Shown in pieces: positions 27,708 through 55,227 of a DNA stretch of 64,000 bases; position 1 is the first letter of the stretch; each line of letters begins with the position of its first letter. The notes beneath the pieces are model-generated. The model had not been told where the DNA came from and ran no database searches. It saw only the letters and a program-made list of their open reading frames with translations. The stretch is from Candidatus Micrarchaeota archaeon (GTDB lineage: Archaea; Micrarchaeota; Micrarchaeia; Anstonellales; Bilamarchaeaceae), in NCBI GenBank assembly GCA_018304385.1, contig JAGVWJ010000008.1, positions 32,308-96,307 on the forward strand, read 5' to 3'. Position numbers and translations under genes: made by a program.

Positions 27708-28139
27708 GGGCCCGTAGCTCAGCCAGCCTTGAATTGCAAATTCAAGATTTGCAGGCAAGGCCTGCAATGGACAGATCGGCAGCCTTCTATGCCCAGCCTT
27801 TTTAGAATCTTGAGTATTTCTCATGGAAAAAAGGCTAGGCTTAACCCAAAAACTAGGATTACTTGTTTTGGGGCTCGACCTTTTCGACATTAAAATATAG
27901 AAGTGTTGAAAAGGGCGAAAGAGGATAGCTGTAGGACATGGGTTCAAAGCCATATCCCCTTTCTTAGGAAGAAAGGGGCTGAGTCATTCACCCCCAAAGA
28001 AGCGGTGATTGTCTGAGTTATACCTAAAATTGCCGACGCATGCTTTGCATGCGTCTAAAGCGCATTTATAAGAAAAATCTTAGGATAGCGCGGCTATTTC
28101 GCATAGGTATAACAATGGACGAAATTCCCATCGGGCCCG
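27708..28139 (+). tRNA. tRNA-Arg(UCU) with three introns (D-loop ~27726-27768; 37/38 27790-27926; 59/60 27949-28125)
   Basis: GGGCCCG/CGGGCCC acceptor; GCAGC-CT-TCT-A..A-GCTGT anticodon arm; ATGGG-TTCAAA|T-CCCAT T arm; CUUC/GAGG BHB central helix at 37/38; one D-stem mismatch. Confidence 0.85.
27949..28125 (+). ncRNA. 177-nt structured tRNA T-loop intron, copy 1
   Basis: Homologous to 55037..55213 with compensatory changes; relaxed BHB at 59/60. Confidence 0.8.
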
Positions 28140-28219
28140 TATTTTATTTTCCTATTTTAGCATGCTTTAAATTCCTTTTCTATTTAAAACATCTATTATA
28201 TAATCACTTATTCTAATTT

Positions 28220-28486
28220 ATGGATGTGGTTCTAATGGATTCAAAAATAAAACAGATAAATGAAATGATCGAACACTTGATAGGTGATACTACTGTTCCA
28301 AAAAATATTAGAAAGGTGCTAACAGAAGCGAATGGCCGATTAAAAGGTGCTGAAGAACCAATAGTAAAAGCTAGTGCTGCAATCTATCTTATTGAATCAA
28401 TAAGCGATGATATAAACATGCCTGCGCACGCACGAACGCAAATATGGGGGATAATTAGTGCATTGGAAGGGCTAAAAAACCAATAG
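28220..28486 (+). CDS. UPF0147-family protein
   Basis: D.TVPKNIR..L, DDINMPAHARTQIW..IS.LE. Confidence 0.9.
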   Translation: MDVVLMDSKIKQINEMIEHLIGDTTVPKNIRKVLTEANGRLKGAEEPIVKASAAIYLIESISDDINMPAHARTQIWGIISALEGLKNQ

Positions 28487-28494
28487 GCGATTTT

Positions 28495-29631
28495 TTGCTA
28501 GAAAAATTAATGGAAAAAGGAATAAGACTTACACTTGATGCAGAAGAACAAATAAAAAAAAGCGATGTGCAAGACGAGATTGTTGATGAGTTACTAACAT
28601 TGAACAAACCACTTATATCCAAAGAAGATGTTGAATCTATTTTAAATAAAAAAATAACCTCCCCAATTGTGGATATAAAGTCTGCAACTAATTTTTTACC
28701 ACTTGCAAAAGAATGGGACACAGATATTAAGATTAATCATACGCGAGATGTTACTGGTAAATCACGTGGAAAAGGAGAGCTAGATGATTTTGTAAGCTAC
28801 TTTCGCAATCGTTATGAAAGGCTTGCGCGCTTGTTGCGCACTGGTAGCAAATACCCAAACGCAGACCTTAAAGACATAAAACGATATGTTAACGAGAGGG
28901 TGCGCGTAATTGTAACTATTTCTGAGAAAAGAGAGACACAAAAAGGAAATACTTTATTCGAAATAGAAGATCTAACTGGCGCATTTAAGGCAGTTGTTTC
29001 TGCAAATAAGTTTTCAAAAGAAAAAGAATTGGCATTCGAAAAGGCAAAACAAGTGCTGTTGGACGATGTTGTAGCAGTTTCTGGCAAAGTTCTAGAACCC
29101 TACATAATAGTTGATGATATTGAATGGCCTGATCTGCCAGTTTTGCGTGAGCGCAAGCTAATAGAAAAGGATTTGGCTATTGCATATATTAGCGATATGC
29201 ATTTTGGCTCAAGATATTTTTTAGATCATTATTTAGAGGCATTTTTAGATTGGTTACATGGAAAGGGAGAAGAACGTGAGCTTGCTAGTAAAGTAAAATA
29301 TATTGTAGTTGCTGGCGACATAGTTGATGGTATTGGTGTTTATCCAAATCAGGAAAAGGAACTAGTTGTAAAAGATATTTACCAACAGTATAAAATGTTT
29401 GATGATTTTATGGAAAGAGTGCCTGATTACATAAAAGTAATAATGGCACCAGGAAATCATGATGCTGTACGCCGTGGCGAACCAATGCCTGCTGTGCCTA
29501 AGGATCTAATAAAATCTGATGAAGTTATTAGGATTGGTAATCCAAGCTGCGTTGCTATTGAAGGATTAAAGCATTTGGTTTATCATGGTACATCAATGGA
29601 CTCATTAATCGCTGCATTGCCTGATGGTTGA
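28495..29631 (+). CDS. polB: DNA polymerase D small subunit DP1, N-terminal part (split)
   Basis: OB fold EDLTG, SDMHFGS, AGDIVDG.G.YPNQ, GNHD, HG motifs. Confidence 0.9.
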   Translation: MLEKLMEKGIRLTLDAEEQIKKSDVQDEIVDELLTLNKPLISKEDVESILNKKITSPIVDIKSATNFLPLAKEWDTDIKINHTRDVTGKSRGKGELDDFVSYFRNRYERLARLLRTGSKYPNADLKDIKRYVNERVRVIVTISEKRETQKGNTLFEIEDLTGAFKAVVSANKFSKEKELAFEKAKQVLLDDVVAVSGKVLEPYIIVDDIEWPDLPVLRERKLIEKDLAIAYISDMHFGSRYFLDHYLEAFLDWLHGKGEERELASKVKYIVVAGDIVDGIGVYPNQEKELVVKDIYQQYKMFDDFMERVPDYIKVIMAPGNHDAVRRGEPMPAVPKDLIKSDEVIRIGNPSCVAIEGLKHLVYHGTSMDSLIAALPDG

Positions 29632-29917
29632 ATATTTAAAGCGCAGGCATCTTTCTCCTATTTATGGCGGCAATTTAATAATTCCTGAAAAGGTAGATTA
29701 TTTCGTAATAGAGGATGAACCAGATGTTTTGCATTGCGGTCATGTGCACAAAAACGGATATGCACTTTATCGCGGCACATTAGTAATTAACTCGGGCACA
29801 TTCCAAGATAGAACAGAATATCAGATTAAACAAGGACATGTACCTACTCCTGCAATTGTACCGGTTTATGAGGCAAAATACGGCAGGTTAAAGAGTATTG
29901 ATTTTAAGACGAGCTAA
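29624..29917 (+). CDS. polB: DNA polymerase D small subunit DP1, C-terminal part (split)
   Basis: LKRRHLSPIYGG, PDVLHCGHVH, INSGTFQ..T.YQ. Confidence 0.9.
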   Translation: MVEYLKRRHLSPIYGGNLIIPEKVDYFVIEDEPDVLHCGHVHKNGYALYRGTLVINSGTFQDRTEYQIKQGHVPTPAIVPVYEAKYGRLKSIDFKTS

Positions 29918-29978
29918 ATTAAGCAACGCTAGCGATCTCTTTTTATTAATTTCCGCAGTATTTACTCTTGCGAGTTTT

Positions 29979-32900
29979 ATGCAAACTTCTTCTGATTATT
30001 TTGAAACATTAAAAAACGAGCTGCAAAAAGCATATGCAACTGCCAGTGCTGCACGCAGCAAGGGATTTGATCCTGAACGCGAGGTAGAAGTAAAAATTAC
30101 AAGGGATGTTGCTGCCCGTGTTGAAGGAATTGTCGGGCCACCAGGCATTGCAGATATTATACGCAAAATGGAACAAGGCGGAAAGGCGCGTGAGGATGTT
30201 GCATTTGAGATTGTGCGCATGATTGCAAGTGGCGAAATAATAAAGAAAACAAAAGAAGAACTAATTGAACAAGCAGTGCGCACTGGTCTAGGAATATTAA
30301 CAGAAGGTGTATTAGTTGCTCCTACTGAAGGTATAGCAAAAATACGCATAAAAAATAATCCTGATGGAAGCGATTATGTTGCAGTTTATTATGCTGGTCC
30401 GATAAGAAGCGCGGGTGGAACTGCAGTTGCATTAAGCGTTGTGCTTGCAGATATTGCGCGAAGGGCATTAGGTATTGGCGATTATCGCACAACTGATACA
30501 CAAATAGAACGCTATGTAGAAGAGATCAATATTTATGAAGCGCGCGTTGCACATCTGCAGTATAAACCACCAGAGGATGACGTAAGGTGGGTTGTTAAGA
30601 ACTGTGTAATTTGCGTTGATGGCGACCCTACAGAGGATGTTGAAGTAAGCGCATTTCGCAATGTACCTGGTGTAGAAACCAATCGCATTCGAGGTGGTAT
30701 TCCACTAGTTATATGCGAAGGAATAGCACAAAAGGCAACTAAAGTTCTTAAATATACGAAAAAGCTTAAGCTAGGCTGGGACTGGCTTGAAAAAATAATA
30801 AAGATTTCGAGAAAAGAGGATAAAGTTGAAATAAAGCCAGACGATAATTATCTGGATGGATTGGTCGCTGGCAGGCCAGTATTCAGCTATCCTTCAACAA
30901 AAGGTGGATTTCGCTTACGCTATGGAAAAAGCAAAACAAATAGTTTAATGGCAAAAAATATTCATCCTGCAACTATGTTTGTATTAGAAAATTTTCTTGC
31001 ATTTGGCACGCACATAAAAATTGAAAGGCCAGGAAAAGGTTGTGTGGTTGCACCTTGCGAACAGCTCGAGCCACCAGTAGTAAAACTAAAAGATGGAAGC
31101 GTAATGAAAGTAAGAACAATAGAAGACGCACTTCGCATTAAGGAGAACATAGCAGAGATATTATTTCTTGGAGATATTCTTGTTACATATGGGGATTTCT
31201 ACAAATCAAATCACCCTCTTCTCCCGAGTGCATGGTGTACAGAATGGTTTGAAAAAGAATGCGATGCAAAAAATGTTAAGGTACCGCACAAATTAGATGG
31301 AAAGGAGGCATTTGAATTTTCAAAAACGCATAATGTACCTTTGCATCCTGATTATACGCTTAATTGGCATGATATAACTATCTTGCAGTTAAAACAGCTT
31401 GTTGACTGGTTAATGACCGCTAAACCAATGTTTGAAAACGAAGAGCTGCGAGAAGTAGTAGTTAAAGCAACTGAATCTGTTGCAATATTAGAAGATCTTT
31501 TAGTTGAGTATAAGGCAGTTGGAGATAACATTGCTATTTCTAGTGATTATGGGTATTCGTTATTTGCTAGCTTAGGTATGCTTAATGATAAAGAAATAAC
31601 AAATAAAAAATTCGAATCAGCTTTCTCTCTGGAGAAAAAACCGCTTGATATTGTTAATGAGCTTTCTGGAATTGTAATCAAAACAAAAATGCCAACATAT
31701 ATTGGCGCAAGAATGGGCAGACCGGAAAAAGCAAAAGAACGCAAGATGGACGGGTCACCAAATGTACTGTTTCCAACAGGCTCGCAGAATAATAGAAGCA
31801 TTATGAAGGTTTATCGCACGCTTAAGACAAAAGAAGGAGAAAAAACGACTAATCTTGACTTAGTAAGAATGCGATGCACCAAATGCCAATCGCTTGGGTT
31901 TTACACTACATGCGGTATTTGCAATAGCGAGTGTAAAAAAGAATTGCTCTGCCAAAAATGCAACCGTGCTGTTGTAACAGGAATTCATTGCGACAATAAA
32001 ACATTGCTATATGACCGCAGGCCTATAGATATTGTGAATCTGCTTGAAGAAACAAAGAAAAAATTAGATATTATGCCAGATGATGTCAAGGGTGTAAAGG
32101 GATTATCAAATATAGAACGGATCCCAGAACGTTTGGAAAAAGGGTTTTTGCGTGCGAAGAACGATGTTTATGTTTTCAGAGATGGAACTAGCCGCTTTGA
32201 TGCGTCAAATGTGCCATTAACGCATTTTACTGCAAAAGAAATAGGGGTAAGTATTCAAAGATTGAAACAGCTTGGTTATGATAAAGACTATTTAGGAAAT
32301 CCAATAACCAGTGATGAGCAGATTATTCCCTTAAAAGTACAAGATATAGTAATTGCCAAAAGTGGTGCAGATTATTTCATTCGTGTTGCTAATTTCATTG
32401 ATGACATGCTTGTAAATTTATATGGTACGCAAGCGTTCTATAATATTAAAACAAAGGAAGATCTAGTTGGCCATTTGGCTGCTGGACTATCACCGCATAC
32501 CAGCGCTGCAGTGCTTTGCCGCATAATAGGATTTACAGATGCGTTTGTTGGATACGCACATCCTTTTTTTCATACTGCGAAGAGGAGGAACTGCGATGGT
32601 GACGAGGATTGCATAATGCTTTTGTTAGATGCACTAATAAATTTCTCACGCCATTATTTGGATGAGAAACGCGGTGGCACAATGGATGCACCACTTGTGC
32701 TTACTCCAATACTTGATCCAAAAGAGGTTGATGACGAGGCGCATGCAATAGAATGTGTTAGTTCATATCCGCTAGAATTCTACCAAGCAACTGAGCGCTT
32801 TGCAATGCCAAGTGAAGTGAAATTAAAAATTGTTAAGGATATTCTTGGTACGCCTGAGCAATATGATGGTATATCACTTACACATCCCTCAGGAGACATA

Positions 32901-33338
32901 AATAAAGGAAATCTAAGAACAGCTTATGTCCAATTAGAATCTATTCCTGATAAAATAAATATCCAGTTTAAACTGCAAGAAAGGATACGTGCAGTTGACA
33001 AGAAAAACGCTGCAGAACGCTTGATATTAAGCCATTTTATTCCGGATTTATATGGAAACCTACGATCGTTTTCTCGGCAAACGTTTCGTTGTGTAAATTG
33101 CAATGAAATATATAGACGCACACCACTAGCTGGCAAATGTATACGCTGCGGAGGCAATCTGCTTTTAACAATAAACAAGGGTGGGATACAAAAGTATCTT
33201 GAGATTTCACGCAAGATAGTTGAGGAATATGATCTGCCTATTTATCTAAAACAAAGGCTCGAACTAGTTGAAAAAGAGATAAAAAGCATATTTGAAGATG
33301 AAAAAATAAAACAGTTGGGACTGGCGGATTTTATATAG
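29979..33338 (+). CDS. polC: DNA polymerase D large subunit DP2 (no intein)
   Basis: GILTEGV..AP.EGI, YAGPIRSAGGT, RRNCDGDED, C-terminal Zn finger. Confidence 0.97.
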   Translation: MQTSSDYFETLKNELQKAYATASAARSKGFDPEREVEVKITRDVAARVEGIVGPPGIADIIRKMEQGGKAREDVAFEIVRMIASGEIIKKTKEELIEQAVRTGLGILTEGVLVAPTEGIAKIRIKNNPDGSDYVAVYYAGPIRSAGGTAVALSVVLADIARRALGIGDYRTTDTQIERYVEEINIYEARVAHLQYKPPEDDVRWVVKNCVICVDGDPTEDVEVSAFRNVPGVETNRIRGGIPLVICEGIAQKATKVLKYTKKLKLGWDWLEKIIKISRKEDKVEIKPDDNYLDGLVAGRPVFSYPSTKGGFRLRYGKSKTNSLMAKNIHPATMFVLENFLAFGTHIKIERPGKGCVVAPCEQLEPPVVKLKDGSVMKVRTIEDALRIKENIAEILFLGDILVTYGDFYKSNHPLLPSAWCTEWFEKECDAKNVKVPHKLDGKEAFEFSKTHNVPLHPDYTLNWHDITILQLKQLVDWLMTAKPMFENEELREVVVKATESVAILEDLLVEYKAVGDNIAISSDYGYSLFASLGMLNDKEITNKKFESAFSLEKKPLDIVNELSGIVIKTKMPTYIGARMGRPEKAKERKMDGSPNVLFPTGSQNNRSIMKVYRTLKTKEGEKTTNLDLVRMRCTKCQSLGFYTTCGICNSECKKELLCQKCNRAVVTGIHCDNKTLLYDRRPIDIVNLLEETKKKLDIMPDDVKGVKGLSNIERIPERLEKGFLRAKNDVYVFRDGTSRFDASNVPLTHFTAKEIGVSIQRLKQLGYDKDYLGNPITSDEQIIPLKVQDIVIAKSGADYFIRVANFIDDMLVNLYGTQAFYNIKTKEDLVGHLAAGLSPHTSAAVLCRIIGFTDAFVGYAHPFFHTAKRRNCDGDEDCIMLLLDALINFSRHYLDEKRGGTMDAPLVLTPILDPKEVDDEAHAIECVSSYPLEFYQATERFAMPSEVKLKIVKDILGTPEQYDGISLTHPSGDINKGNLRTAYVQLESIPDKINIQFKLQERIRAVDKKNAAERLILSHFIPDLYGNLRSFSRQTFRCVNCNEIYRRTPLAGKCIRCGGNLLLTINKGGIQKYLEISRKIVEEYDLPIYLKQRLELVEKEIKSIFEDEKIKQLGLADFI

Positions 33339-33389
33339 TGGTAGAAAGAGTTTGAAGATTTATAAATACTTCGGTCTAAAGTACTTGTT

Positions 33390-34517
33390 ATGAGGTTAAA
33401 TTATAACTTAGCGCCAGGCTCTAATTTTAGATTTAGTAGAAGAACTGCCATGGCATTTGCAGTATTTTTACCATTCACGTGCGCACCTACTCGCGGAGAA
33501 GTCAGGCATGTTGCTGGAACAAATACTGTTATAATGCATGAAGATACTTATAAGGATTTAGAAGCTCAAGCAGCAAAACAAGCAGCACCTGAAGATACCG
33601 AAAGAGAAGAAATGCTTAGAAGAATTAGTGAGTTAATAGGAGATAACACAACCTTGAGAGAAATAAATGAAATATTAAAAACAAGAAACTCAACTGTTGA
33701 AGGAGAGATAACATCATTGATAAAAGCTTTAAGATCACGTGACCCGAGAGGTAGAACCCCATCTTACGATTTATCTAATGACCCTGCCTTTAAAGTAGGT
33801 AGATTATATTTGCATTCCTTAGGGGTAGAAAATCCTACTTACGTAGATTATAGTATTTTAATTGAAATGTTAAGTTTTCAAGCAATGATAAAACAGGTTA
33901 CAGATAGTACTGTGATAGACCCTACGACACTAAAAGATCAAATAAAAAGAAACTATATCTCAGTAAATGGCGGAGGAGGAATTTTACTTAGCACAGATGG
34001 ATATTTTATCACTGCTTATCATGTTGTTGCTAACTCAGAAAACTTTTATGTACAATATAATGGTAGAACGTATAATGCACAACGTATTGTTTGGAATCCC
34101 AATTATGAAGTTGCTATATGTAAAATTGACTTTGGACCAAATGTTGAATTTAGTCCTACAAATGTCAGATTCGCTCGACTAGGAAAAATAAGAAAAGGTG
34201 CAAACATTGAGGTATTTGGTCATGTAGGAGATAATCAATATTTTCAGATGGGGAGAATTGTCAATAATAATGTTGAGTCACTTCTTGATGGAGGGCTGCA
34301 CGTATATTCTATGGTTGAAACTACAGCACTTTCAACAGGTGGCTTTAGCGGTGGGCCGGTTATCCTTCAAGATACCGGAGAATTAGTAGGTATCACATCA
34401 TATAGCAAAGGAATGCCTGGGGAGTTAGGTGCTGCAAGAATAGATCAATTCTTAGAAGTAATGAGATGGTTTGTAGATAAAAAACTAGAACAGTTGAGGA
34501 TAATACATCGCTCTTAA
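33390..34517 (+). CDS. Secreted trypsin-like serine protease with MRLNY leader and coiled-coil
   Basis: TAYHVV (His), GFSGGP (Ser); YEVA at the usual Asp position. Confidence 0.8.
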   Translation: MRLNYNLAPGSNFRFSRRTAMAFAVFLPFTCAPTRGEVRHVAGTNTVIMHEDTYKDLEAQAAKQAAPEDTEREEMLRRISELIGDNTTLREINEILKTRNSTVEGEITSLIKALRSRDPRGRTPSYDLSNDPAFKVGRLYLHSLGVENPTYVDYSILIEMLSFQAMIKQVTDSTVIDPTTLKDQIKRNYISVNGGGGILLSTDGYFITAYHVVANSENFYVQYNGRTYNAQRIVWNPNYEVAICKIDFGPNVEFSPTNVRFARLGKIRKGANIEVFGHVGDNQYFQMGRIVNNNVESLLDGGLHVYSMVETTALSTGGFSGGPVILQDTGELVGITSYSKGMPGELGAARIDQFLEVMRWFVDKKLEQLRIIHRS

Positions 34518-34909
34518 CTAAATAATTCCTTAGTAGGCTGGTGGAACCATAGGATATAGATAGGAACTAATCCAATAAGCCCAGGAATATTTCCTACGAC
34601 AACGCTTAAAACGCTCATCGCACTGCTAACTAGCACTAGAAAATAAGCAAACTTATTCCTTTTCCATAGATAGAATGTGATAGCAAAGCCGATTATTGCT
34701 GTGATAACAAGAACTATTCCTATGTATGCTAATAAACCCCCAGCAAAATCAAGTAAAGCACCATATAATCCATAACCTTTAAGCGTTTCTAGAACTGATA
34801 CACCACCAATTATAAACAAAACACCTAACCCAAGCAATAAAAGATCAAAAAGAAAATAAAAAGCAACAAGAATTTTTAATAAAGTTGTTGCAGGCTTTGA
34901 TCCATCCAT
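34514..34909 (-). CDS. Small multi-pass membrane protein
   Basis: About four hydrophobic spans. Confidence 0.7.
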   Translation of the reverse strand: MDGSKPATTLLKILVAFYFLFDLLLLGLGVLFIIGGVSVLETLKGYGLYGALLDFAGGLLAYIGIVLVITAIIGFAITFYLWKRNKFAYFLVLVSSAMSVLSVVVGNIPGLIGLVPIYILWFHQPTKELFS

Positions 34910-34917
34910 GATATCGC

Positions 34918-35010
34918 CTTCTAATTTCTCATTCTCATGAATACGTCGTACTACCGATATTCTCTATAGTGACGCAGTCTTATGTTCTCTTAGGCTGCGT
35001 CGGTCGTTTA
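34918..35010. repeat. Dispersed ~100-bp hairpin element, copy 2
   Basis: acgtcgtactac..ctatagtgacgcagtct..gctgcgtcgg. Confidence 0.8.
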
Positions 35011-35037
35011 ATGTATTCCTTAGGTTATGAAATATCC

Positions 35038-35550
35038 CTACAAGAACGGATGCTCTGCCATACCGCCTATTACTGGCAGTTTAACCTTCTCGCCACTATA
35101 TGCTTTGAATGCTAGGAAAAGATCTATTAACATAATAACAAATCCTACCATGCCAAACAGACCAATTAATCCTAGGGACGCACCTAATCCACCACCCGCA
35201 TAATACCCAATTGGATCATAGTAAGCGGTTCTTAAAGATGCTACGAATAAGAAATAAAATACAAATCCTATTCCAACAACAACTAATGTCCATAAGAATG
35301 CTTGAAATGAACAAAAGGCAAGGAATGGGTCATTTTTCTTTCCTTTATTATGAAAATAAATAGCCAATGGAATTATTAATCCTAAAAGACCCCAATAACC
35401 GCCATCACCAAAACCATAACCGCCAATACCACCTGCCAAATAAGCAATGCCAGCTAGTGCCTTTGGATCATCTAAAAAAGTTGGAGCAGGTTGTGCTGCT
35501 GGAGCTGCTGGAGCTGCTGGTTGTGCTGTTGCAACTGGAGTATCTACCAT
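35038..35550 (-). CDS. DUF4870-like membrane protein
   Basis: F..FQAFL and FKAYSGEKVKLPVIG motifs. Confidence 0.75.
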   Translation of the reverse strand: MVDTPVATAQPAAPAAPAAQPAPTFLDDPKALAGIAYLAGGIGGYGFGDGGYWGLLGLIIPLAIYFHNKGKKNDPFLAFCSFQAFLWTLVVVGIGFVFYFLFVASLRTAYYDPIGYYAGGGLGASLGLIGLFGMVGFVIMLIDLFLAFKAYSGEKVKLPVIGGMAEHPFL

Positions 35551-47320: not shown

Positions 47321-47455
47321 ATGAGAATAATAAAAAATATCAAAAATTTCATAATGCGCTTATTTGGTCAGTCCAAAAAAGAAGATGAAAAAGAGATACA
47401 TGAGAGAATTATGAAAAAAAGGGCTAAGGCATACGAAGAACTTGCGAGGTATTAG
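47321..47455 (+). CDS. Putative antitoxin of Fic/Doc (44 aa, absent from ORF track)
   Basis: MRIIKNIKNFIMRLFGQSKKEDEKEIHERIMKKRAKAYEELARY; abuts the Fic ATG; TATA at ~47291. Confidence 0.6.
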   Translation: MRIIKNIKNFIMRLFGQSKKEDEKEIHERIMKKRAKAYEELARY

Positions 47456-47836
47456 ATGCTCACAAAGAAGCAAATAATACAAGAACACGACAAACTTATC
47501 GAATTATTTGGTGGAACTTTAGGCATGCACTATGACGGCAAGATAGAAAGAACTATAGAAAGATATAACGAAAGTAAGAATAAAAAAGAAGCATGCATTG
47601 AATTTTACTATGAAATAATAGTAGGGCATCCTTTTGTTGATGGAAATAAACGAACAGCCACACATTTTCTTGAACATTTACTAGAATTGAATGGTTATAG
47701 ACTAAATGCTACCAATGAGCAAATCGTAAAAATGGCGCTCGACATTGCAAGAAAAAACGAAGAAATGGAAAAGAAAAAAAGAACACCCGTATCGCTTGAT
47801 TACGTTAAAGACTACACAGCTAAATTTATCATTTAA
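47456..47836 (+). CDS. Fic/Doc-family toxin
   Basis: HPFVDGNKRTA Doc-type motif. Confidence 0.92.
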   Translation: MLTKKQIIQEHDKLIELFGGTLGMHYDGKIERTIERYNESKNKKEACIEFYYEIIVGHPFVDGNKRTATHFLEHLLELNGYRLNATNEQIVKMALDIARKNEEMEKKKRTPVSLDYVKDYTAKFII

Positions 47837-50345
47837 ACTGCTTCTTCATCTTAGCAATTAGTTTTTTCTTTTGAGCAGATTCCTTCAATGCGAATTGTAA
47901 AACATCTAAAATATTACTTACTGGAATTATTTTTATTTTCTTCTTCCGCTCAGCGCTTAAATAAACATCCTCAACATTTGTTTTTGGAATTAAAACTATT
48001 TGCAATCCAGAATCAATTGCTGCTTCGATCTTTGCACTAACTCCGCCAATAGGTAAAACCCCTCCTCGTATATCCAGCGAGCCAGTCATTCCTACCTGCT
48101 GATTAATTGGTATATCCGCTAAAGCACTTATTACTCCTATAGCAATGCTTATGCTAGCGCTATCGCCTTCAACACCTTCATAAGTTCCGATAAACTGAAT
48201 ATGGATATCCATCTGCGCTATATCCGTACCAATGTGTTTTTTCACAATTGCAGAAACGTTTTCAACAGCTTCCTTTGCGATTGCCCCAAGCTTGCCAGTT
48301 GCAATTACCTTTCCTTCTGATTTACTGGCAGCAGGTGTAACCTCTGCAACAATAGGCAATACAAGCCCGGCCATTGACTCCCCTAGAACAGCCAAACCAT
48401 TAACCCTGCCATTTGCATAGCCTTCAGTTACTATTGTCTGGTATTCTTTTTTCTGCTCAATTATTTTTTTACCAAGCTGACTTTCTATTGGGTTAAATAT
48501 CTTTCTTGCTTGTAACACATGCTCGCGTTCAACGTATTTCGCCTTTTGCTCGCGCGCAATATCACCAGCAGCGCGCACTAGTCCACCAATTTCTCTTAGA
48601 TTAAGTGTAAAGCGCTTGCGCCTTGAAGATAATCTTCGTGCTTCTTCAATAATTTCAAGCACTGCATCGCGCGAAAAATGCGAGATCTTTCCATCTTTTT
48701 TAACCTCTTGCGCAACGAACTGCACGATTCTGTTTTCATTTTCTTCGCTATCTTCCATTGAATCTTCTACATAAACTTCATAGCCTGCGCCTCGTATGCG
48801 CGAGCGCAATGCTGGATGAATCTGCTGCATATCTGGAAGATTGCCTGCTGCAACTAGTACGAAATCAGTTGGTGCTGGCTCTGTTTTTACTAGTGCACCA
48901 CTGCTCATTTCGCTTTGACCAGTAATTGAATATCTTTTTTCTTGCATTGCTGTTAGCAATTCTTGTTGCCAATGCCATTTCAGCGATGCAATTTCATCTA
49001 TGAATAGAACACCTTTATTTGCTTTGTGCACTGCGCCACTTTCGACACGAAGATGCGGAGGGGTACCAAGGCCGCCAGAATTACTTACTAAAATACCGTT
49101 TGCAAATATGTTTCCTGATTCGGTTGTTATGTTATAAACAAAACCTAATGCATTGATTTCTGAAATTTCATTTATACGAACAGTGCGCGAACCTCTAGAT
49201 AAGAATAACTGATTAGAACCCCCATCATGCGAAACATAATTAATATTCGTAACTATATTTTCGTTGCCTTTCAATTTACTAATTTCAACATACTTTTCAT
49301 TAGTATAAATTTTGTGTTCTGGGGTAACCAAAAGCGAGCCACCACTGTATTTCAATACTTTTAATTTTCCATTATGAGGTCTTCTATTAACTGCGATTAT
49401 TAGAACTTTTCGAATTTTTCCATTCTTGTATCCAAATGTATAAGCCTTTTCCTCTTCTGGCAATAATAAACCTTCATAACTCTCTTCATTTTTTTCTATT
49501 AATCCCGGGTATTTCGCAATCATTTTGTCTACAAATTCATTCATCAAAATATTTTGCAAATTTCCATTTTTTAGTATGTTTATTTCTGTGTTAAAAAATG
49601 ATTGTAACGGATCATGTTTACAATCACCAAGTAATGCGCCCGCTTTTGCACCTGTACCGTCGATGAACGGTGCAGTTTTCTTTTCAGTATTATCTACTAT
49701 TAGTTTTGGGTAACTCTGCTCAAATGGACCAAGCCTTCTGCTTAAGCCCGCAGTTGCATTTGAAATAATAAAAAGAAACGCAAGGATACCTAGCGTAGTT
49801 ATTACCATCCATTTCAAGTTCTCTGGTATATCTATTAGAAAAATTAAAGCAAGCATTGTTATTGCTAATATCATTAAGATAAATGTAGAAGATATCCCCT
49901 TTGGCATCTCATCCATGTTTTTTCTATAATTAGTTATTCTTCTTCCCAAACCTAGCTTTAGCGCCTCTGGTAAAAGCTCAACTTTTTTTTGTTCAGTGTG
50001 TTTTTTTATTACAGCTAACTCCTGTGGCATGTAAAGTCTTGCATAATCAGGATTTTTCTTTAGATAATCGTAAGTGGGATAGGTCTTAACTGTTTTTATT
50101 ATTGGTTGGTTCTCATTATTTGAATTTGGCAAAACCAAAACATCTTCTAGCTCTTCAGTAGGCATAAGCTCTGCCATTGCTTGCGCAAGCATGCTTTTTC
50201 CTGTGCCTGGCGGTCCAATAAGTAAGACATTACGCTTTTGCACAGCTGCCTTTTTTATTATATTAACGCCTTTATCCTGACCAATGATTTGGTCAATTAG
50301 CTTTTCAGGAACTGTGATTTCTTCTGTAGTTTTAAATTGTTTCAT
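47829..50345 (-). CDS. lonB: Archaeal LonB protease (membrane-bound), intein-containing
   Basis: GPPGTGKS, two TM helices, LFIDEI, EGDSAS, GGV.AK Ser-Lys dyad. Confidence 0.96.
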   Translation of the reverse strand: MKQFKTTEEITVPEKLIDQIIGQDKGVNIIKKAAVQKRNVLLIGPPGTGKSMLAQAMAELMPTEELEDVLVLPNSNNENQPIIKTVKTYPTYDYLKKNPDYARLYMPQELAVIKKHTEQKKVELLPEALKLGLGRRITNYRKNMDEMPKGISSTFILMILAITMLALIFLIDIPENLKWMVITTLGILAFLFIISNATAGLSRRLGPFEQSYPKLIVDNTEKKTAPFIDGTGAKAGALLGDCKHDPLQSFFNTEINILKNGNLQNILMNEFVDKMIAKYPGLIEKNEESYEGLLLPEEEKAYTFGYKNGKIRKVLIIAVNRRPHNGKLKVLKYSGGSLLVTPEHKIYTNEKYVEISKLKGNENIVTNINYVSHDGGSNQLFLSRGSRTVRINEISEINALGFVYNITTESGNIFANGILVSNSGGLGTPPHLRVESGAVHKANKGVLFIDEIASLKWHWQQELLTAMQEKRYSITGQSEMSSGALVKTEPAPTDFVLVAAGNLPDMQQIHPALRSRIRGAGYEVYVEDSMEDSEENENRIVQFVAQEVKKDGKISHFSRDAVLEIIEEARRLSSRRKRFTLNLREIGGLVRAAGDIAREQKAKYVEREHVLQARKIFNPIESQLGKKIIEQKKEYQTIVTEGYANGRVNGLAVLGESMAGLVLPIVAEVTPAASKSEGKVIATGKLGAIAKEAVENVSAIVKKHIGTDIAQMDIHIQFIGTYEGVEGDSASISIAIGVISALADIPINQQVGMTGSLDIRGGVLPIGGVSAKIEAAIDSGLQIVLIPKTNVEDVYLSAERKKKIKIIPVSNILDVLQFALKESAQKKKLIAKMKKQFK
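49080..49601 (-). mobile_element. Mini-intein (174 aa) in LonB
   Basis: Interrupts HDPLQ|SGGLGTP; starts SFF, TPEH block B, VYNIT..N.FANGILVSN blocks F/G; no endonuclease motifs. Confidence 0.9.
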
Positions 50346-50355
50346 GTATTCACCA

Positions 50356-51585
50356 TTAGCTCACTACATGTACATCTTTAAATGCGATTCTAGGTGCAAT
50401 TAAATTATCAAATACCTTGCTATTTTTTTCCATCCCTTCTATACTATTGAAAAGATTAAATATATTTCCACTAATTATGAAACCACGAACTGGATTAGCT
50501 TGACCATCTTTATAATGGAAGCCTGCGTTTACTTCAACTCCAAAATCACCGGTTGTTAGGTTTGATGTATGCGTTCCATGCAATGATTTTACTAAGATAA
50601 ACTCCTTTAGCTCATTTTCAAAGTTGGAATAACCATTACTACTATTAATAACAAGATTTGAATTCCCTATGCTTGGAGGTGTAGAATAATCACCCCTACT
50701 ACATGCACCATTTCCCGTATAATTATCCAAAGCTGCTGTTTCGTGGTCGTATAAGAAATTTTTAATAACCCCATTTTCAATCAAAGGAATTCGCCTACTT
50801 GGTGCTCCTTCATCATCAAAAGGCCTGATCGCAGATGCGCTTGCAGCAGCATCATCATAAATATTTAACTCATCACTAAATATTTTCTTATTAACCTTGT
50901 CAGAAATAAAAGATATCTTTCTTCTTTTCCAATCACCTGAAAAAGATGGGAGCAGCACGCTAAGCATGCTATGCAATGCCTCCAAATCAAACACAACGGT
51001 ATAACTTGCACTTTGCATTTTTTTCGCACCTCGCATTGCACGTGCCATTTCTCCTGCTTCCTCTCCTATTTTAACAAAATCTTCTGGTAATGAAACTGAT
51101 GACAGATAAGAATGCCCAAAACCATCATCCAACATTGCCTCGGCATATATTTCAATACCTGTTTTTTCATAGTTTGCATCTAAGCCGCTCGTATTCTTAA
51201 TATTTAATCCCAAATTTCCTGCCTCCACATTTATGCGGCAGTTTTTTGTAAATTTTTCGATACCAGATTTTATTTCATAAATGATATCCTTAAGGTGAGT
51301 CTCATCAATTTCAAGGATTTTCCTATCCATTATATTTATTTTCTTGTAAACTGACTTTTCAACAAAGGAGAAATTCTTTATTTCCAAGCGAGCTGCTTTT
51401 TTAGCATTATCAAGTGCCTTACCTAGGTCTTTCTCCTGCTCGCAATATGCAAATCCAATTTTATTATCATGAAAAACTCTAATACCATAGCCGCTGCTTT
51501 CAAATGCCTCTTTTATTTTTATCTCGTTTTCTGAGAAAAGTAATGAGCTACCGCTCTCTTTTAAGTAAAAAGTCTCATTAACCAT
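50356..51585 (-). CDS. TldD/PmbA-family protein
   Basis: GYGIRV..D.KIGFA, RPFDDEGAP...LIENG, TTGDF..G. Confidence 0.9.
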   Translation of the reverse strand: MVNETFYLKESGSSLLFSENEIKIKEAFESSGYGIRVFHDNKIGFAYCEQEKDLGKALDNAKKAARLEIKNFSFVEKSVYKKINIMDRKILEIDETHLKDIIYEIKSGIEKFTKNCRINVEAGNLGLNIKNTSGLDANYEKTGIEIYAEAMLDDGFGHSYLSSVSLPEDFVKIGEEAGEMARAMRGAKKMQSASYTVVFDLEALHSMLSVLLPSFSGDWKRRKISFISDKVNKKIFSDELNIYDDAAASASAIRPFDDEGAPSRRIPLIENGVIKNFLYDHETAALDNYTGNGACSRGDYSTPPSIGNSNLVINSSNGYSNFENELKEFILVKSLHGTHTSNLTTGDFGVEVNAGFHYKDGQANPVRGFIISGNIFNLFNSIEGMEKNSKVFDNLIAPRIAFKDVHVVS

Positions 51586-51611
51586 AAGTTTATATTTTAT
51601 TTTTAATTTAA

Positions 51612-52181
51612 ATGTTTATGCCTAATGAAGAAAATAAAACTATCCGTTGCTTTTTAGCAGTTGAAATACCTAATGAATTAAAGGATAAGATCGCCAGCTT
51701 GGCTAAGGAGCTAGATATTAAAGGAATAAAATTAGTTGAACCAGAAAACATACATGTAACCCTAAAGTTTTTGGGTGATGTTAAAGAGGATAAGATAAAC
51801 AATATTAAGGAAAGACTACGAACAGTGAACTTCTCAAATTTTAATATCAAACTGCATGGTGTTGGTGTATTCCCAAATGAAAATTATATTAAAGTAGTTT
51901 GGGTTGGCTGCGAAAGCAAAGAGCTTTACATATTGGCAAAAAAGATAAATGAAGCGCTAGCAAGCGAATTCAAAAGAGAGGAATTTACTGCGCACGCGAC
52001 TATTGCGCGTGTTAAACAAAAGGTTGAACTTCATGACTTTTTAGAGAAACATAAAAACGATAGCTTTGGAGAGTTTGTTTGCACTAACTTTGTATTAAAA
52101 CAAAGCGAGCTTAGCAGAGAAGGACCTAAATATACTACTTTAGCAAGTTTTCAGTTCTCAGTTTTGGGTCATGAGTTTTGA
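51612..52181 (+). CDS. thpR: RNA 2',3'-cyclic phosphodiesterase (2H family)
   Basis: HVTLKF and HATIAR motifs. Confidence 0.93.
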   Translation: MFMPNEENKTIRCFLAVEIPNELKDKIASLAKELDIKGIKLVEPENIHVTLKFLGDVKEDKINNIKERLRTVNFSNFNIKLHGVGVFPNENYIKVVWVGCESKELYILAKKINEALASEFKREEFTAHATIARVKQKVELHDFLEKHKNDSFGEFVCTNFVLKQSELSREGPKYTTLASFQFSVLGHEF

Positions 52182-52222
52182 GTTTCGCGTCTCGAGTATG
52201 GAAACTCAAAACGATCAGCGGA

Positions 52223-53029
52223 TCAGAGACTGACTAATGCCACCCCAAACTTGTTGAACGTCAGGCGACCTGCATCGACGCCACACCCGTCGCCGTCGAC
52301 GTAGACGCCACGAACCAGAGGAAGTATATAAGCGTCTTCTATTCTCTGTAAATACCTAGTATCTTTTGATTGTCCTACTGCTTTGCCTTGTGGGATTCCT
52401 GTTTTAGTGTGTGGGACATACCAACCATATTTTCTAATTGGAAAATTTTTTATTAGATGAACATTTGCACCATCTAATACTCTAATTTCATATCTTTTAT
52501 CTCCTAAATCTATTACTTCAAAATCAGGATGTTCTACAACTAATGCACAATTTGTTCTTCCTAAGAATCGTAGAGGAGTATTGAAGGTTACTGAAAGACG
52601 ATCTCTAATAAACCAAATTTCATCAGTACATATTACTTGTTCTCCAAATGGAATGCCTGGCGCTTCATAAATAATTAAAGTTCCTGTCCATACTGGATAA
52701 TTTTTTGTTAAATATTCATAATCAGTGGTTATAATTCTATCATGAACAATGTTTGGAACTACCATTTTTCCTTCTTTTTGAGCTAATGCTAATGCCTCAA
52801 CAAAATTTAATTTTCTATGAAATTCTATTACCTGTTTCACTACTTCCGGATTCGCTTCTCTTAACATTTGCCTTGTTCTTCTTGCTTGTTCTAAATATGA
52901 CTGGCCTGCAACATCTGGCTTTCTTACTTCATGAGGTTCTTCTTTTTTGTATCTGCCAAATACATTGTTTGCGCTGGCTGAAACTACATGTGGAGTAATT
53001 CTATTACCTGCACAGACTAATCTTACCAT
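52223..53029 (-). CDS. Hypothetical protein with DGR-like variable C-terminus (candidate DGR target)
   Basis: GC-rich NNC codon run at the 3' end; LVRG...FGVA frame. Confidence 0.65.
   Translation of the reverse strand: MVRLVCAGNRITPHVVSASANNVFGRYKKEEPHEVRKPDVAGQSYLEQARRTRQMLREANPEVVKQVIEFHRKLNFVEALALAQKEGKMVVPNIVHDRIITTDYEYLTKNYPVWTGTLIIYEAPGIPFGEQVICTDEIWFIRDRLSVTFNTPLRFLGRTNCALVVEHPDFEVIDLGDKRYEIRVLDGANVHLIKNFPIRKYGWYVPHTKTGIPQGKAVGQSKDTRYLQRIEDAYILPLVRGVYVDGDGCGVDAGRLTFNKFGVALVSL
52238..52318 (-). other. Candidate DGR variable region
   Basis: cgt ggc gtc tac gtc gac ggc gac ggg tgt ggc gtc gat gca; downstream hairpin at 52177-52212. Confidence 0.6.
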
Positions 53030-53176
53030 AAGGCTTATCTTGCCAGAAACTGTTTAAAAACCTATCTTTCCCATATATTAACACATAATAATCAGAGCCA
53101 GAGAAGATTTAAATACCCTTATTCACAAAGACAGTATATCAATTTTATGTTTATTTTTAACTGTTGAGGTTTAACT

Positions 53177-53476
53177 ATGACTAAAGCAAAGATTACATTA
53201 AGCGGAGAAAGTCAGAAAGATTTAGAGGGAGTGGTAACACAGATAAAGGAACTTACTACTACCCTTGGAATGAAATTCTCTGGCCCAGTTAGATTACCAA
53301 GGAAAAAGTTGGAAATTTCATGTAGAAAAACGCCTTGCGGAGATGGCAGCGATACTTATGAGCATTGGGAGAAAAGGATAAGCAAAAGGCTCGTAGTAGT
53401 TGAAGGCGACGAGATTAAACAGATTTTACGCGTGAAAGTACCATCAAATGTATTTATCAAAATATTCATAAGCTAA
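53177..53476 (+). CDS. rps10: 30S ribosomal protein S10
   Basis: GPVRLP, RKTPCGDGSDTYEHWE.RI.KR. Confidence 0.95.
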   Translation: MTKAKITLSGESQKDLEGVVTQIKELTTTLGMKFSGPVRLPRKKLEISCRKTPCGDGSDTYEHWEKRISKRLVVVEGDEIKQILRVKVPSNVFIKIFIS

Positions 53477-53487
53477 TTAAATTATTA

Positions 53488-53973
53488 TTGCTAATTTTTG
53501 TTATGCACTTACTCTTAGATGAGATGCTTAAGAAAACTGCGAAATGGCTTAGAATTTTCGGCATAGATACTGAATTTATTGAAGGAAAAAAGGATAGTGA
53601 GTTAATTGATTATGCAACTAAAAATAATCTAATTTTTATTACTAAAGATGAAGAACTAGCGAATAGATGCAGAAAACAAAAAATTAATTACTTGTTATTA
53701 AAATCTGAAAAAATAGCTGAGCAGTTACGTGAGATAAAGAGCTCGCTTGCATTGGAATTTAAATTTCCAGAGCAAACGCGCTGCCCAAGTTGCAATGAAA
53801 GTTTAAAACTAGTTGATAAAGAGAAAGTTAGCGCTTTAGTTCCAGAAAATGTATTGAAGTCTCAAGAAAAATTCTGGCTCTGTGAAAAATGTAACAAAGC
53901 TTATTGGCAAGGATCGCATTGGAGAAATATAACAAAGATCTACGAGGGGGCTAACAAAATATTATCATCATAA
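53488..53973 (+). CDS. Mut7-C RNase (PIN-like) domain protein
   Basis: LDEML...AKWLRIFG.DT, T.D..L, RC..CN, C.KC.K.YW.GSHW. Confidence 0.9.
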   Translation: MLIFVMHLLLDEMLKKTAKWLRIFGIDTEFIEGKKDSELIDYATKNNLIFITKDEELANRCRKQKINYLLLKSEKIAEQLREIKSSLALEFKFPEQTRCPSCNESLKLVDKEKVSALVPENVLKSQEKFWLCEKCNKAYWQGSHWRNITKIYEGANKILSS

Positions 53974-54761
53974 TAACAATGCGGTGCATATGGACTGCGG
54001 ATAGTAACCGGCTTCCCATCTAATCTTATCTCGTCTATTAGCTGGTCGCTTGCTCTTTTTTCTAGCTGCGACACTAAAAATTGCCAGGCTGTTTGCAGAT
54101 TGCGCTTGTTTGCTATTTTAAGCGCTTCAAATAGTATTTCTTGCCCTTTTCTTAGACCAAAACGCCCTAATACTGCTAAGCATTCTCGATATAGCATATA
54201 ATTAGCTGCTGTATCAAATGCCCATGCTACATTTCTATTTTCATCTGTTTTCGCACTCCTATATAATATATCTAAAGACCTATGTAAGATTCCATTGGTC
54301 TCTTCATTATCGATACATTGTAAAAAGATTAAGCTGTGGCGTCCAAACCGGTTTCCTTTTCTAATCCCTTTCTCCGCTCTGTCAGCTCCTTTATTAAATT
54401 CTATAAAATTTGCAATAGCCTCAGCTACTGATTCTTCTAACGGCATTACAACGCGCCATCTCTTAGAATCAAGTATTTTCTCTACCTTAAGATGAACACG
54501 CTCATGATTTCTTATAGACGATTTTTGTGCTGTTTCACCCGATTCGTATGTTACCTTTCCGTCTCCTGCAACTGCATTCAAATCATATAGCACACCATAT
54601 CTGCTTTTTCTTTTTTCCAGCATGTCTCTTAACCTAGTTCTTGCTCTAGCTTTGGCTTCTCTATATCCCATGTTTTTTCCGTCTAATATATAAGAAGCTC
54701 TAATGTGCCTTCTGTCAGAGATTACAATAGCTCCTAGAAACCTTTTGCTATGCGTGGTCAT
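53940..54761 (-). CDS. Hypothetical protein
   Basis: 273-aa ORF with upstream TATA-like box; no recognised motif. Confidence 0.6.
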   Translation of the reverse strand: MTTHSKRFLGAIVISDRRHIRASYILDGKNMGYREAKARARTRLRDMLEKRKSRYGVLYDLNAVAGDGKVTYESGETAQKSSIRNHERVHLKVEKILDSKRWRVVMPLEESVAEAIANFIEFNKGADRAEKGIRKGNRFGRHSLIFLQCIDNEETNGILHRSLDILYRSAKTDENRNVAWAFDTAANYMLYRECLAVLGRFGLRKGQEILFEALKIANKRNLQTAWQFLVSQLEKRASDQLIDEIRLDGKPVTIRSPYAPHCYYDDNILLAPS

Positions 54762-54864
54762 AGCATTAGTATAAAACGAAAGTTATAAAAAGCGTTATTA
54801 AGGGTAACTTAGAAAATAGAATAGTTTAAATTTATATGTAAGCATTTATTCTTATCTTACCTAT

Positions 54865-54980
54865 AGAAAATATAGGACGGCCGACGCAGCAAAAGGCTTT
54901 ATTAGACTGCGTCACTATAGAAAATATCAGTAAAACGACGGCTTTATAATAAAGAGAAAATAGAAGAAAACATAGCTTGG
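54865..54980. repeat. Dispersed ~100-bp hairpin element, copy 3 (includes the tRNA-Ala promoter)
   Basis: Reverse complement aligns with 12573..12690 and 34918..35010; CTTTATAA at ~54942. Confidence 0.8.
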
Positions 54981-55227
54981 GCCTGTAGCTCAGTAGCAGA
55001 GCACCCGCCTTGCACGCGGGGGGCCGAGGGTGCGAGGCCATAGCCCCTTTCTTTAGAAAAGAAAGGGGCTGAGTCATTCACCCCCAAAGAAATGGGTGAA
55101 ACTTGGTTATACTGAACTGCCGATGAATGCGTAGCATTCATCCACAAGCGCATCTCTAAGAAATATCTTAGGATAGCGCGGCTGTTTCGCATAAGTATAA
55201 CAATGGACGAAAATCCCTCCGGGTCCA
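54979..55227 (+). tRNA. tRNA-Ala(UGC) with 177-nt intron at 59/60
   Basis: GGGCCTG/CGGGTCC acceptor with G3:U70 and A73; CCCGC-CT-TGC-AC-GCGGG; GAGGG-TGCGAG|T-CCCTC. Confidence 0.88.
55037..55213 (+). ncRNA. 177-nt structured tRNA T-loop intron, copy 2
   Basis: Homologous to 27949..28125. Confidence 0.8.

Follow-up and report, generated by a model that had tools for sequence, protein, structure and literature searches.

Composite, structured inserts at position 59/60 of two tRNA genes in a Micrarchaeota genome

Two interrupted tRNA genes

The stretch of DNA considered here, 64,000 nucleotides (nt) in length and called the window below, is taken from contig JAGVWJ010000008.1 (positions 32,308 to 96,307) of assembly GCA_018304385.1, a Micrarchaeota (DPANN) genome of 1.53 Mb with 36.5% G+C that is 89% complete (genome G000 in our numbering, with the window on its contig C20). 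The host is described as a tiny symbiotic archaeon. Within the window, a tRNA-Arg(UCU) gene and a tRNA-Ala(UGC) gene each carry an insert in the T-loop (Table 1), and we are confident that both inserts are gained introns of the bulge-helix-bulge (BHB) type, each a composite of separable RNA modules.

An inspection of the sequence alone (the original prediction) had singled out these inserts because they share their length, their 59/60 insertion point and their ends, and all three observations are correct. In both genes, five T-stem pairs and six loop bases precede the insert, which is followed by U60 and the 3' side of the T-stem (UUCAAA-insert-U in tRNA-Arg and UGCGAG-insert-U in tRNA-Ala). 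The two copies are 83% identical (BLAST E = 2.9e-42), with the common ends GCCAUA... and ...AAUGGACGAAA. The reported absence of an open reading frame (ORF) also holds, as the sense-strand frames do not exceed 58 amino acids (aa), differ between the copies, and include none that is common to both. The Rfam search that had been proposed as a check matched no family: Rfam (15) covariance models run on the window detected tRNA alone at the gathering score, and more permissive searches returned nothing credible at E ≤ 10 for the Arg copy or at E ≤ 0.1 for seven copies from other genomes.

Table 1. Features of the two interrupted tRNA genes, numbered from the first nucleotide of the window. MFE, minimum free energy; R1, R2 and R3, covariance models described in the text
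Feature	Position	Strand	Remarks
tRNA-Arg(UCU) gene	27708-28139	+	Three introns (D-loop, 37/38, 59/60); exon about 75 of 432 nt; read from sequence
T-loop 59/60 intron, Arg copy	27949-28125	+	177 nt; MFE fold -73.9 kcal/mol, z -7.0
5' splice region, Arg copy	27943-27953	+	U54-A59 at 27943-27948, predicted cut after A59; G1 at 27949; sequence reading
Closing helix, Arg copy	27950-27953/28115-28118		CCAU/AUGG; present in MFE fold
3' splice region, Arg copy	28115-28126	+	AUGG (helix h'), bulged A, CGAA, AU, predicted cut, U60 (28126)
5' module, Arg copy	27949-28006	+	R1 78.2 bits, E = 1.8e-22; GCCAUA, hairpin CCCCUUUCUU/AAGAAAGGGG, CUGAG-UCA-UUCA, CCCCC-AAAGAA (mirror of AAGAAA)
3' domain ("class A"), Arg copy	28001-28125	+	R2 125.2 bits; R3 108.3 bits
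P1, Arg copy	28017-28023/28107-28113		
P2, Arg copy	28027-28034/28092-28099		
P3, Arg copy	28035-28043/28047-28055		
P4a, Arg copy	28060-28063/28088-28091		
P4b, Arg copy	28069-28073/28078-28082		
tRNA-Ala(UGC) gene	54979-55227	+	G3:U70 pair; single intron (59/60); Rfam tRNA match begins at 54979
T-loop 59/60 intron, Ala copy	55037-55213	+	177 nt; MFE fold -81.6 kcal/mol, z -7.65
5' module, Ala copy	55037-55096	+	R1 84.1 bits, E = 1.8e-24
3' domain, Ala copy	55092-55213	+	R2 137.4 bits; R3 120.6 bits
P1, Ala copy	55106-55112/55195-55201		
P2, Ala copy	55114-55121/55180-55187		
P3, Ala copy	55122-55130/55134-55142		
P4a, Ala copy	55148-55151/55176-55179		
3' tail, Ala copy	55203-55211		AUGG at 55203-55206, CGAA at 55208-55211

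The inserts sit where tRNA function demands their removal. When the 177 nt are deleted in silico, ARAGORN calls an intact tRNA-Ala(UGC), and deletion of a related 179-nt insert on contig C59 likewise yields a tRNA-Pro(CGG) call. The joined T-loop of tRNA-Ala(UGC), UGCGAGU, is that of intronless orthologues. Since only one 5' half of a tRNA-Ala(UGC) gene was found in the 89%-complete genome, the interrupted copy is probably needed. The exons of tRNA-Arg(UCU), as read from the sequence, comprise the acceptor strands GGGCCCG/CGGGCCC, the anticodon loop CUUCUA and the T-arm AUGGG/CCCAU.

It is barely conceivable that the interrupted genes are dead tRNA pseudogenes from which the inserts are never removed. 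Nothing specific speaks for this explanation, although introns occupy 80% of the tRNA-Arg gene and tRNA-Ala has an unusual T-loop (G55). The exons, however, are intact and cognate (G3:U70 in tRNA-Ala included), the UGCGAGU T-loop is conserved in intronless orthologues, tRNA-Ala(UGC) was found as a single gene, and sister species keep the orthologous intron-bearing genes.

Two features of the host genes can be recorded separately. Introns account for about 80% of the tRNA-Arg(UCU) gene, which contains, in addition to the T-loop insert, a D-loop intron of about 40 nt and a hairpin-rich 37/38 intron of about 140-165 nt whose boundary is not fixed (27708-27948 of the window). Also, the T-loop of tRNA-Ala(UGC) reads UGCGAGU or UGCGAAU throughout the family (window 55031-55036 plus 55214; loci L183-L210), such that position 55 is G, even in intronless orthologues, in place of the near-universal U (pseudouridine 55).

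A splice structure supplied in part by the intron

The nucleotides around both splice junctions can be arranged into a plausible substrate for the archaeal splicing endonuclease. In the Arg copy, the GAA of the CGAA near the intron 3' end would pair with U54, U55 and C56 of the T-loop, leaving A57 to face the C; a G57 in other tRNAs adds a fourth pair. The predicted BHB has two 3-nt bulges, A-U-U60 on the 3' strand and A58-A59-G1 on the 5' strand, each cut after its second base. The helix CCAU/AUGG closes the intron, and one extra A bulges out across from the 5' bulge. Covariation among copies is seen in this closing helix (CCAU/AUGG, ACCA/UGGU and CUAG/CUAG), and a tail of the form NGARAY, followed by U across the junction, is kept in every T-loop copy. 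The motif is best described, as far as sequence can tell, as a near-canonical but relaxed hBHBh' (helix-BHB-helix') structure. It had been proposed that the terminal CGAA pairs with a T-loop consensus UUCG, so that the intron brings its own BHB to any T-loop. A self-supplied half of the BHB stands, but only three of the four bases pair in these two tRNAs, because their T-loops read UUCA (Arg) and UGCG (Ala) rather than UUCG.

The genome encodes a 399-aa EndA (L113:865-2064) that matches the ε2 EndA of ARMAN-2 (4FZ2) over its full length (E = 1e-129), as well as an RtcB ligase, and thus an ordinary protein route for excision is at hand. The ARMAN-2 ε2 enzyme cuts a 59/60 intron in vitro (PMC3239211). 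By strong analogy, the ε2-type endonuclease of the present genome would cut within the two 3-nt bulges and RtcB would ligate the ends, leaving the tRNA free of its intron.

The 3' domain forms a three-way junction

The last 120 nt or so of each insert constitute a domain built around a three-way junction, at which P2, P4 and a variable hairpin, P3, meet inside the long-range stem P1. In P4, a conserved internal loop or 2-nt bulge separates P4a from P4b, and this arm carries the invariant core C-GUC...GAC-UA-G. Two covariance models were built, R2 from six copies of the genus and R3 from sixteen copies. R3 matches 13 of the 99 genomes of the same family at E ≤ 0.001, with about 1-8 copies in each, and the 34 copies that were aligned are those with E ≤ 1e-4, drawn from 10 of these 13 genomes and from seven genera. 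The modeling and scanning of relatives had been suggested along with the original prediction, and copies were indeed recovered in related genomes.

Covariation was counted on alignments that were fitted to the models, which favors structure, and the sequences are related; on these terms, 91% of cells are paired in the 16-copy alignment versus 31-40% when the 3' partners are slid, with 24 of 33 pairs changed on both sides, and the 34-copy alignment gives 86.5% versus 32-42%, with compensatory changes at 9 of 9 pairs of P3 and complete (100%) pairing of P4a. One P4a pair occurs as CG, GC, UA, AU and GU among the copies. We consider the predicted fold convincing despite the fitted alignments, because the contrast between paired and slid arrangements is large and the types of pair are many. 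The compensatory changes noticed at the outset between the Arg and Ala copies are genuine, both in P3 (GACGCAUGC/GCAUGCGUC in one copy versus GAUGAAUGC/GCAUUCAUC in the other) and in P2 (AAAUUGCC/GGCUAUUU versus GAACUGCC/GGCUGUUU), and the GUUAUAC/GUAUAAC stem does enclose a three-way junction. Furthermore, MFE folds of the T-arm plus intron recover the T-stem, CCAU/AUGG, hairpin 1 of the 5' part and P1 through P4 in both genes (z-scores in Table 1). G·U pairs outnumber A·C oppositions by 29 to 7 in the 3' domain, which points to constraint on the transcribed (sense) strand. Overall, the view of the insert as a conserved, covarying, noncoding structured RNA element is supported.

The nucleotides that do not vary are the AA in the junction, the C-GUC and GAC-UA-G around P4, and GG(C). 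The original description of invariant blocks as single-stranded needs correction for the second of them (UCUUAGGAUAGCGCGGCU), which is mostly helical and corresponds to the 3' strands of P4b, P4a and P2.

Several known motifs were considered as models for this domain. P4, with its 2-nt bulge on the 3' strand, was compared with domain V of group II introns and the likeness was dismissed, because the positions of the AGC triad covary freely and the triad is not conserved. Readings as a kink-turn (K-turn), box C/D or box H/ACA RNA were likewise set aside, as inspection revealed neither tandem G·A pairs nor any pair of boxes at conserved positions. The suggestion that the element is a ribozyme or a guide RNA thus receives no encouragement, with Rfam empty and the C/D, H/ACA and K-turn signatures not seen on inspection.

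A mirror-repeat module at the 5' end

The first 55 nt or so of the insert form a second module of very different character. It begins with GCCAUA and continues with an 11-bp pyrimidine/purine hairpin of the form CCCC-U(n)-C-U(m)/A(m)-G-A(n)-GGGG, the conserved string CUGAG-N3-UUCA, a C-run, and a final purine tract A(n)-G-A(m) that mirrors the purine strand of the hairpin. In 54 of 57 distinct copies, as many A residues separate the G from the G-run as separate the C-run from the G, the number being 3, 4 or 5. None of 10,000 permutations reached the observed agreement, although the copies are related and this figure is not to be read as a probability. The mirror tract is the sequence signature of a purine-motif (R·R-Y) triple helix, and a three-stranded fold is predicted. 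The C-run competes with the putative third strand for the same G-run.

When the Arg insert was compared with its own genome by BLAST, the first 60 nt or so were found in four further T-loop inserts that have a different remainder. A covariance model for this module (R1) matches 31 of the 99 family genomes, with up to 35 copies in one of them. A search of 185,579 species genomes for the exact pattern gave 47 hits, of which one lies in a Streptomyces and is ascribed to chance, two are in metagenome-assembled genomes (MAGs) titled "archaeon", and the rest belong to Micrarchaeota; by this measure the module appears specific to Micrarchaeota. A scan of viral sequences (IMG/VR) with the 5' pattern yielded two matches, both due to chance and located inside tape-measure-like coding sequence (GEKGPE[MI]FTP). 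The interpretation of the 3' domain and the mirror-repeat 5' module as structured RNA motifs that are absent from Rfam is well supported.

A second hairpin, UUCACC/GGUGAA, follows the 5' module in this genus and was entertained as a general feature. This was rejected, since a stem of at least 5 bp is present in about half of the copies; the mean stem across all copies of the 5' module is 4.8 versus 4.0 in shuffles.

Some occurrences of the 5' module are unusual. A diverged version resides in the D-loop intron of another tRNA (G000:C62:26422-26493, plus strand; GCCCCUGUGGCUCAGUAG|CCUAGCCC...), and the same gene also has a hairpin cassette (UCGACCUUUU.../...AAAAGGUCGA) that resembles the cassette in the 37/38 intron of tRNA-Arg. 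At locus L034 (G015:C3:36600-36784, minus strand), two intergenic copies are arranged in tandem with a period of 123 nt and no tRNA around them. Just upstream of the window, a T-loop intron that carries the module (L047; G000:C20:26411-26515, minus strand) has a double-hairpin insert of about 50 nt nested within the 3' strand of hairpin 1, and is therefore an example of an insertion inside an intron module.

Modules occur apart and in diverse settings

The original prediction treated the insert as a single 177-nt unit with two copies, and neither part of that picture survives. A third copy of the 3' domain in the source genome interrupts tRNA-Pro(CGG) (G000:C59:19960-20140, minus strand), and the 5' module alone occurs in at least four further tRNA introns of this genome. 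Various 3' bodies are attached to the 5' module. In genome G017 the 3' domain is preceded by a 5' module of another kind, and in G005 (contig C61) it makes up an intron by itself. Because the modules occur apart and recombined, the 177-nt insert represents one combination of separable parts.

The 34 aligned copies of the 3' domain are distributed over three kinds of sites. Fifteen are T-loop 59/60 introns (in the source genus, G017 and G005), five are in tRNA 5' leaders, all in G005 and either abutting the tRNA 5' end or about 50 nt before it, and 14 are in intergenic spacers adjoining unrelated housekeeping genes, with no conserved neighbors and no mobile-element genes alongside. The intron copies are all in the sense orientation. 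The proposed occurrence of the element in nonhomologous tRNAs is supported (Arg, Ala-UGC, Ala-CGC, Pro-CGG and others), but T-loops alone are too narrow a description given the copies in leaders, spacers and a D-loop. Beyond the family, the 3' domain was not detected by R3 across 19 further families of the phylum (123 genomes) or by R2 across 11 further families of the order (78 genomes), with MAG incompleteness and strict filters limiting both searches. A viral scan (IMG/VR) with the 3'-domain core gave no match, and a metagenome scan with the same core gave one contig, a close relative of a G005 locus.

On that metagenome contig (ORJL010172082.1; L212, 3780-4180, minus strand), the locus is near-identical to L091, and the P3 hairpin of the 3' domain alone has been replaced. 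The replacement is the hairpin of another G005 copy, L100.

Such a dispersed distribution might also be produced by elements that move as DNA, such as repetitive extragenic palindromic (REP) sequences, miniature inverted-repeat transposable elements (MITEs), or palindrome-associated transposable elements (PATEs) derived from IS200/IS605. The modules would then be mobile palindromic microelements that insert after TTCAA-like targets and survive in T-loops only where they can be spliced. The scatter over spacers, leaders and introns, the perfect hairpins with further hairpins nested inside them (G000:C20:26411-26515), and the tandem intergenic copies at L034 would all be at home in this scenario. 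Nevertheless, we think it unlikely. The 29 G·U pairs versus 7 A·C oppositions indicate selection on one strand, as for RNA, and the intron copies are uniformly sense-oriented. Within a genome, the copies have diverged (83% identity) and show compensatory changes, unlike the near-identical products of recent insertion. Also, mobile-element genes do not adjoin the intergenic copies, and neither a Y1 transposase (PF01797) nor TnpB (PF07282) was found in the 89%-complete G000. The more specific notion of an IS200/IS605 element, with TTCAA as its target, hairpins at its ends and an ωRNA-like scaffold, was abandoned when these two proteins were not found in that genome.

Gain of the intron and exchange between copies

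The history of the insertion site can be examined by comparing tRNA-Ala(UGC) genes, which were retrieved from 57 other genomes of the family and read for about 27 orthologues. In most of these, position 59/60 is uninterrupted (UGCGAGU or UGCGAAU), and in several, one or other of two further, unrelated intron families interrupts it. The present intron in tRNA-Ala(UGC) is confined to this genus among the orthologues read. Because the site is mostly empty or otherwise filled in relatives, the comparison shows, within the limits of these sequences, that it has been filled repeatedly and that this intron was acquired by the ancestor of the genus; 59/60 of tRNA-Ala(UGC) is an intron hot spot. The other two families, found in other genera, begin with AGCUUUG... 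(L185, L187, L200 and L204) and with ACGGUUUUC... (L196, L197 and L211).

Within the genus, the hosts include tRNA-Arg, tRNA-Ala(UGC), tRNA-Ala(CGC), tRNA-Pro(CGG) and at least two more tRNAs, and related introns are found across tRNA identities in five genomes of three genera. Individual copies are mosaics. For P4 and the 3' tail of the Arg copy, the best match is the Ala copy in its own genome (30/33 each), whereas P2/P3 best match the Arg copy of a sister species (27/32), which points to exchange of segments between copies. By this comparison, intron copies that share a genome have traded segments since the gain in the ancestor. The sister species keep the orthologous intron-bearing tRNA genes, and at these loci the intron is still 73-77% identical although the flanks cannot be aligned between species.

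Repeated filling of one site could also result from a self-cleaving or self-splicing ribozyme, or from an RNA parasite that enters T-loops by reverse splicing and becomes fixed through reverse transcription. In the intron, the complement of the universal T-loop lies beside the closing helix, and an excised circle could conceivably rebuild the BHB in trans on any tRNA. A search for a co-occurring reverse transcriptase (RT), which had been recommended at the outset, did turn up a group II-like RT fragment in the genome, but nothing ties it to the introns: it is a split fragment at a contig end that scores below family cutoffs. Ribozyme families are unmatched, and copies in leaders and intergenic spacers cannot come from reverse splicing into T-loops. 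An origin of this type is accordingly very unlikely. The RT fragment itself is of the group II intron RT/maturase type and is split into 124 aa and 239 aa (G000:C2:18337-19364; L115:1285-2312, minus strand).

Passenger RNA or functional RNA?

The explanation that we favor is that the modules are selfish or neutral passenger RNA domains, which would persist wherever tRNA processing or an intergenic position renders them harmless. A tight fold might be selected because it holds the two halves of the T-loop together and lets the BHB form, such that the host tRNA stays spliceable. The patchy, multi-copy and dispersed distribution, the unrelated contexts, the swapping of hairpins and the modular recombination all favor a passenger. 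Taken as a whole, the statement that a composite, gained BHB intron is excised and has a selfish or neutral passenger role is one toward which we lean slightly, with the passenger role as its least certain part.

A number of observations weigh against this explanation. The preservation of the intron amid unalignable flanks argues for constraint beyond mere tolerance. The unpaired invariants (the P4 core, the junction AA and CUGAG...UUCA) persist in intergenic copies that need no splicing, and 20 of the 34 copies are tied to tRNA genes; a functional RNA that has a partner explains both facts no worse than a passive passenger does. No mobilizing enzyme was identified. With regard to splicing, the central BHB helix is predicted to have three Watson-Crick pairs and one mismatch in both tRNAs and the structure has an extra bulged A, making it relaxed rather than strict, and we infer splicing itself, the cut sites and circularization. 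Finally, the manner in which covariation was counted, as given above, is generous to structure.

These points lead to the main competing idea, which we regard as possible though improbable: that a genuine noncoding RNA (ncRNA), made up of the 3' domain alone or together with the 5' module, acts in trans, or in cis on the precursor tRNA, is released by EndA from T-loop introns or by RNase P from tRNA 5' leaders, and has a protein-binding site in its P4 core. With 15 copies in introns and five in the leaders of G005, the linkage to tRNAs means that either EndA or RNase P could release a discrete RNA, and an RNase P RNA is present. From genus to genus the core has stayed invariant while the stems have turned over, the predominance of G·U over A·C is that of a sense-strand RNA, and orthologous introns have been kept while their flanks became unalignable. 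Some intergenic copies lie behind TATA-like AT-rich boxes and are followed by T-runs, which is a weak clue in an AT-rich genome. There is also a precedent in the box C/D RNA of a tRNA-Trp intron, as summarized in a review (PMC4090602). Conversely, a distribution restricted to 13 of 99 genomes with about 1-8 copies each, and not detected in the 19 other families, is unlike that of an essential RNA. The copies lie in unrelated contexts (ahead of an ATG, at the 3' ends of genes, or between housekeeping genes), a variable guide-like segment complementary to host tRNAs was not seen, C/D, H/ACA and K-turn features were not seen either, Rfam is empty, and the P3 hairpin has been swapped wholesale between close relatives.

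A more speculative and rather doubtful proposal is that the modules together make up an RNA element of a new type, one that takes advantage of tRNA processing, either as an RNA-level mobile intron or as a protein-binding ncRNA. As a mobile intron, the excised circle would rebuild the BHB on any mature tRNA, EndA and RtcB would reverse-splice it, and fixation in DNA would follow. As an ncRNA, the RNA would be matured by EndA from introns or by RNase P from leaders, and the triplex-like 5' module might stabilize it.

Relation to known systems

The nearest counterparts of the inserts are the 59/60 introns of ARMAN-2 (Candidatus Micrarchaeum acidiphilum), which agree in phylum, position, relaxed or near-strict BHB and type of endonuclease, the three-unit ε2 enzyme (Fujishima et al. 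2011; PMC3239211). The available text of that report describes them as ordinary tRNA introns and contains no account of conserved structured modules, whereas the present introns contain two covarying domains that also occur outside introns. The length of 177 nt is likewise beyond the range of 11-129 nt stated in a 2014 review (PMC4090602).

Families of transposed introns have been described in Thermoproteales (Fujishima et al. 2010, Mol Biol Evol 27:2233, as summarized in PMC4090602 and bioRxiv 10.64898/2026.10.13.758758). As portrayed in these summaries, they resemble the present family in having homologous introns across tRNA identities, a gain after speciation, and a BHB that defines the permissible sites (PMC4090602). 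They differ in that the host here belongs to DPANN rather than Thermoproteota, the introns are much longer, highly structured and modular, modules occur in leaders and intergenic regions, segments recombine, and the 5' module contains a triplex-like mirror repeat. Intron transposition was inferred in the Thermoproteales work, and its mechanism was left unknown, according to the review (PMC4090602).

The box C/D RNA nested in the archaeal tRNA-Trp intron (Omer 2000; Clouet d'Orval 2001; Singh 2004, cited in PMC4090602) serves as the model for the ncRNA alternative, since it too is a structured RNA in a tRNA intron and, by the review's summary, is released there by the splicing endonuclease. Unlike that RNA, the present introns have no pair of C (RUGAUGA) and D (CUGA) boxes at conserved positions, are located at 59/60 rather than 37/38, and occur in multiple copies in several tRNAs. 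Inspection of the alignments found a CUGA in the 5' module without a RUGAUGA partner at a conserved position, and no guide complementary to tRNA. Similarly, the modules share with REP, Rickettsia palindromic element (RPE) and MITE-like repeats their small size, lack of coding capacity, richness in hairpins, and dispersed, patchy, and sometimes nested or tandem occurrence. They depart from these repeats in the strand-specific three-way junction, the G·U bias, the old, diverged and compensated copies and the strong link to tRNA; REP-associated tyrosine transposase (RAYT)/Y1 proteins were not found.

Text searches of the open literature on tRNA introns of Micrarchaeota and DPANN returned no description of such modules, and to our knowledge the 3' domain and its non-intron copies are newly defined here. 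To the question of how archaeal tRNA genes acquire introns at noncanonical positions, this family contributes introns that are long, rich in information, and traceable in their parts. Because the site is empty or filled by three unrelated families, one splice half is self-supplied, modules exist outside introns, and segments are exchanged, the gain, the spread and the structural needs of splicing by ε2 endonucleases become directly testable.

Additional observations

Three further observations concern single loci. The covariance match to RNase P RNA in the source genome (G000:C40:14199-14404, minus strand) covers only about 206 nt; at 69 bits it falls short of the Rfam gathering score (84), and this RNA may be a reduced form. 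At L100 (G005:C67:1943-2059, minus strand), the 3' domain stands after an entire tRNA 3' end, and behind it part of that 3' exon is repeated (AAAAUCAGGCAGGUGGGA ... AAAAUCAGGUGGGA), which could be an alternative 3' exon or a scar of recombination. At L166 (G021:C200:454-553, minus strand), the 3' domain is situated in the 3' end of the frame for a MiaB-like radical-SAM methylthiotransferase, after the TRAM domain, where the open frame may simply read through the element.

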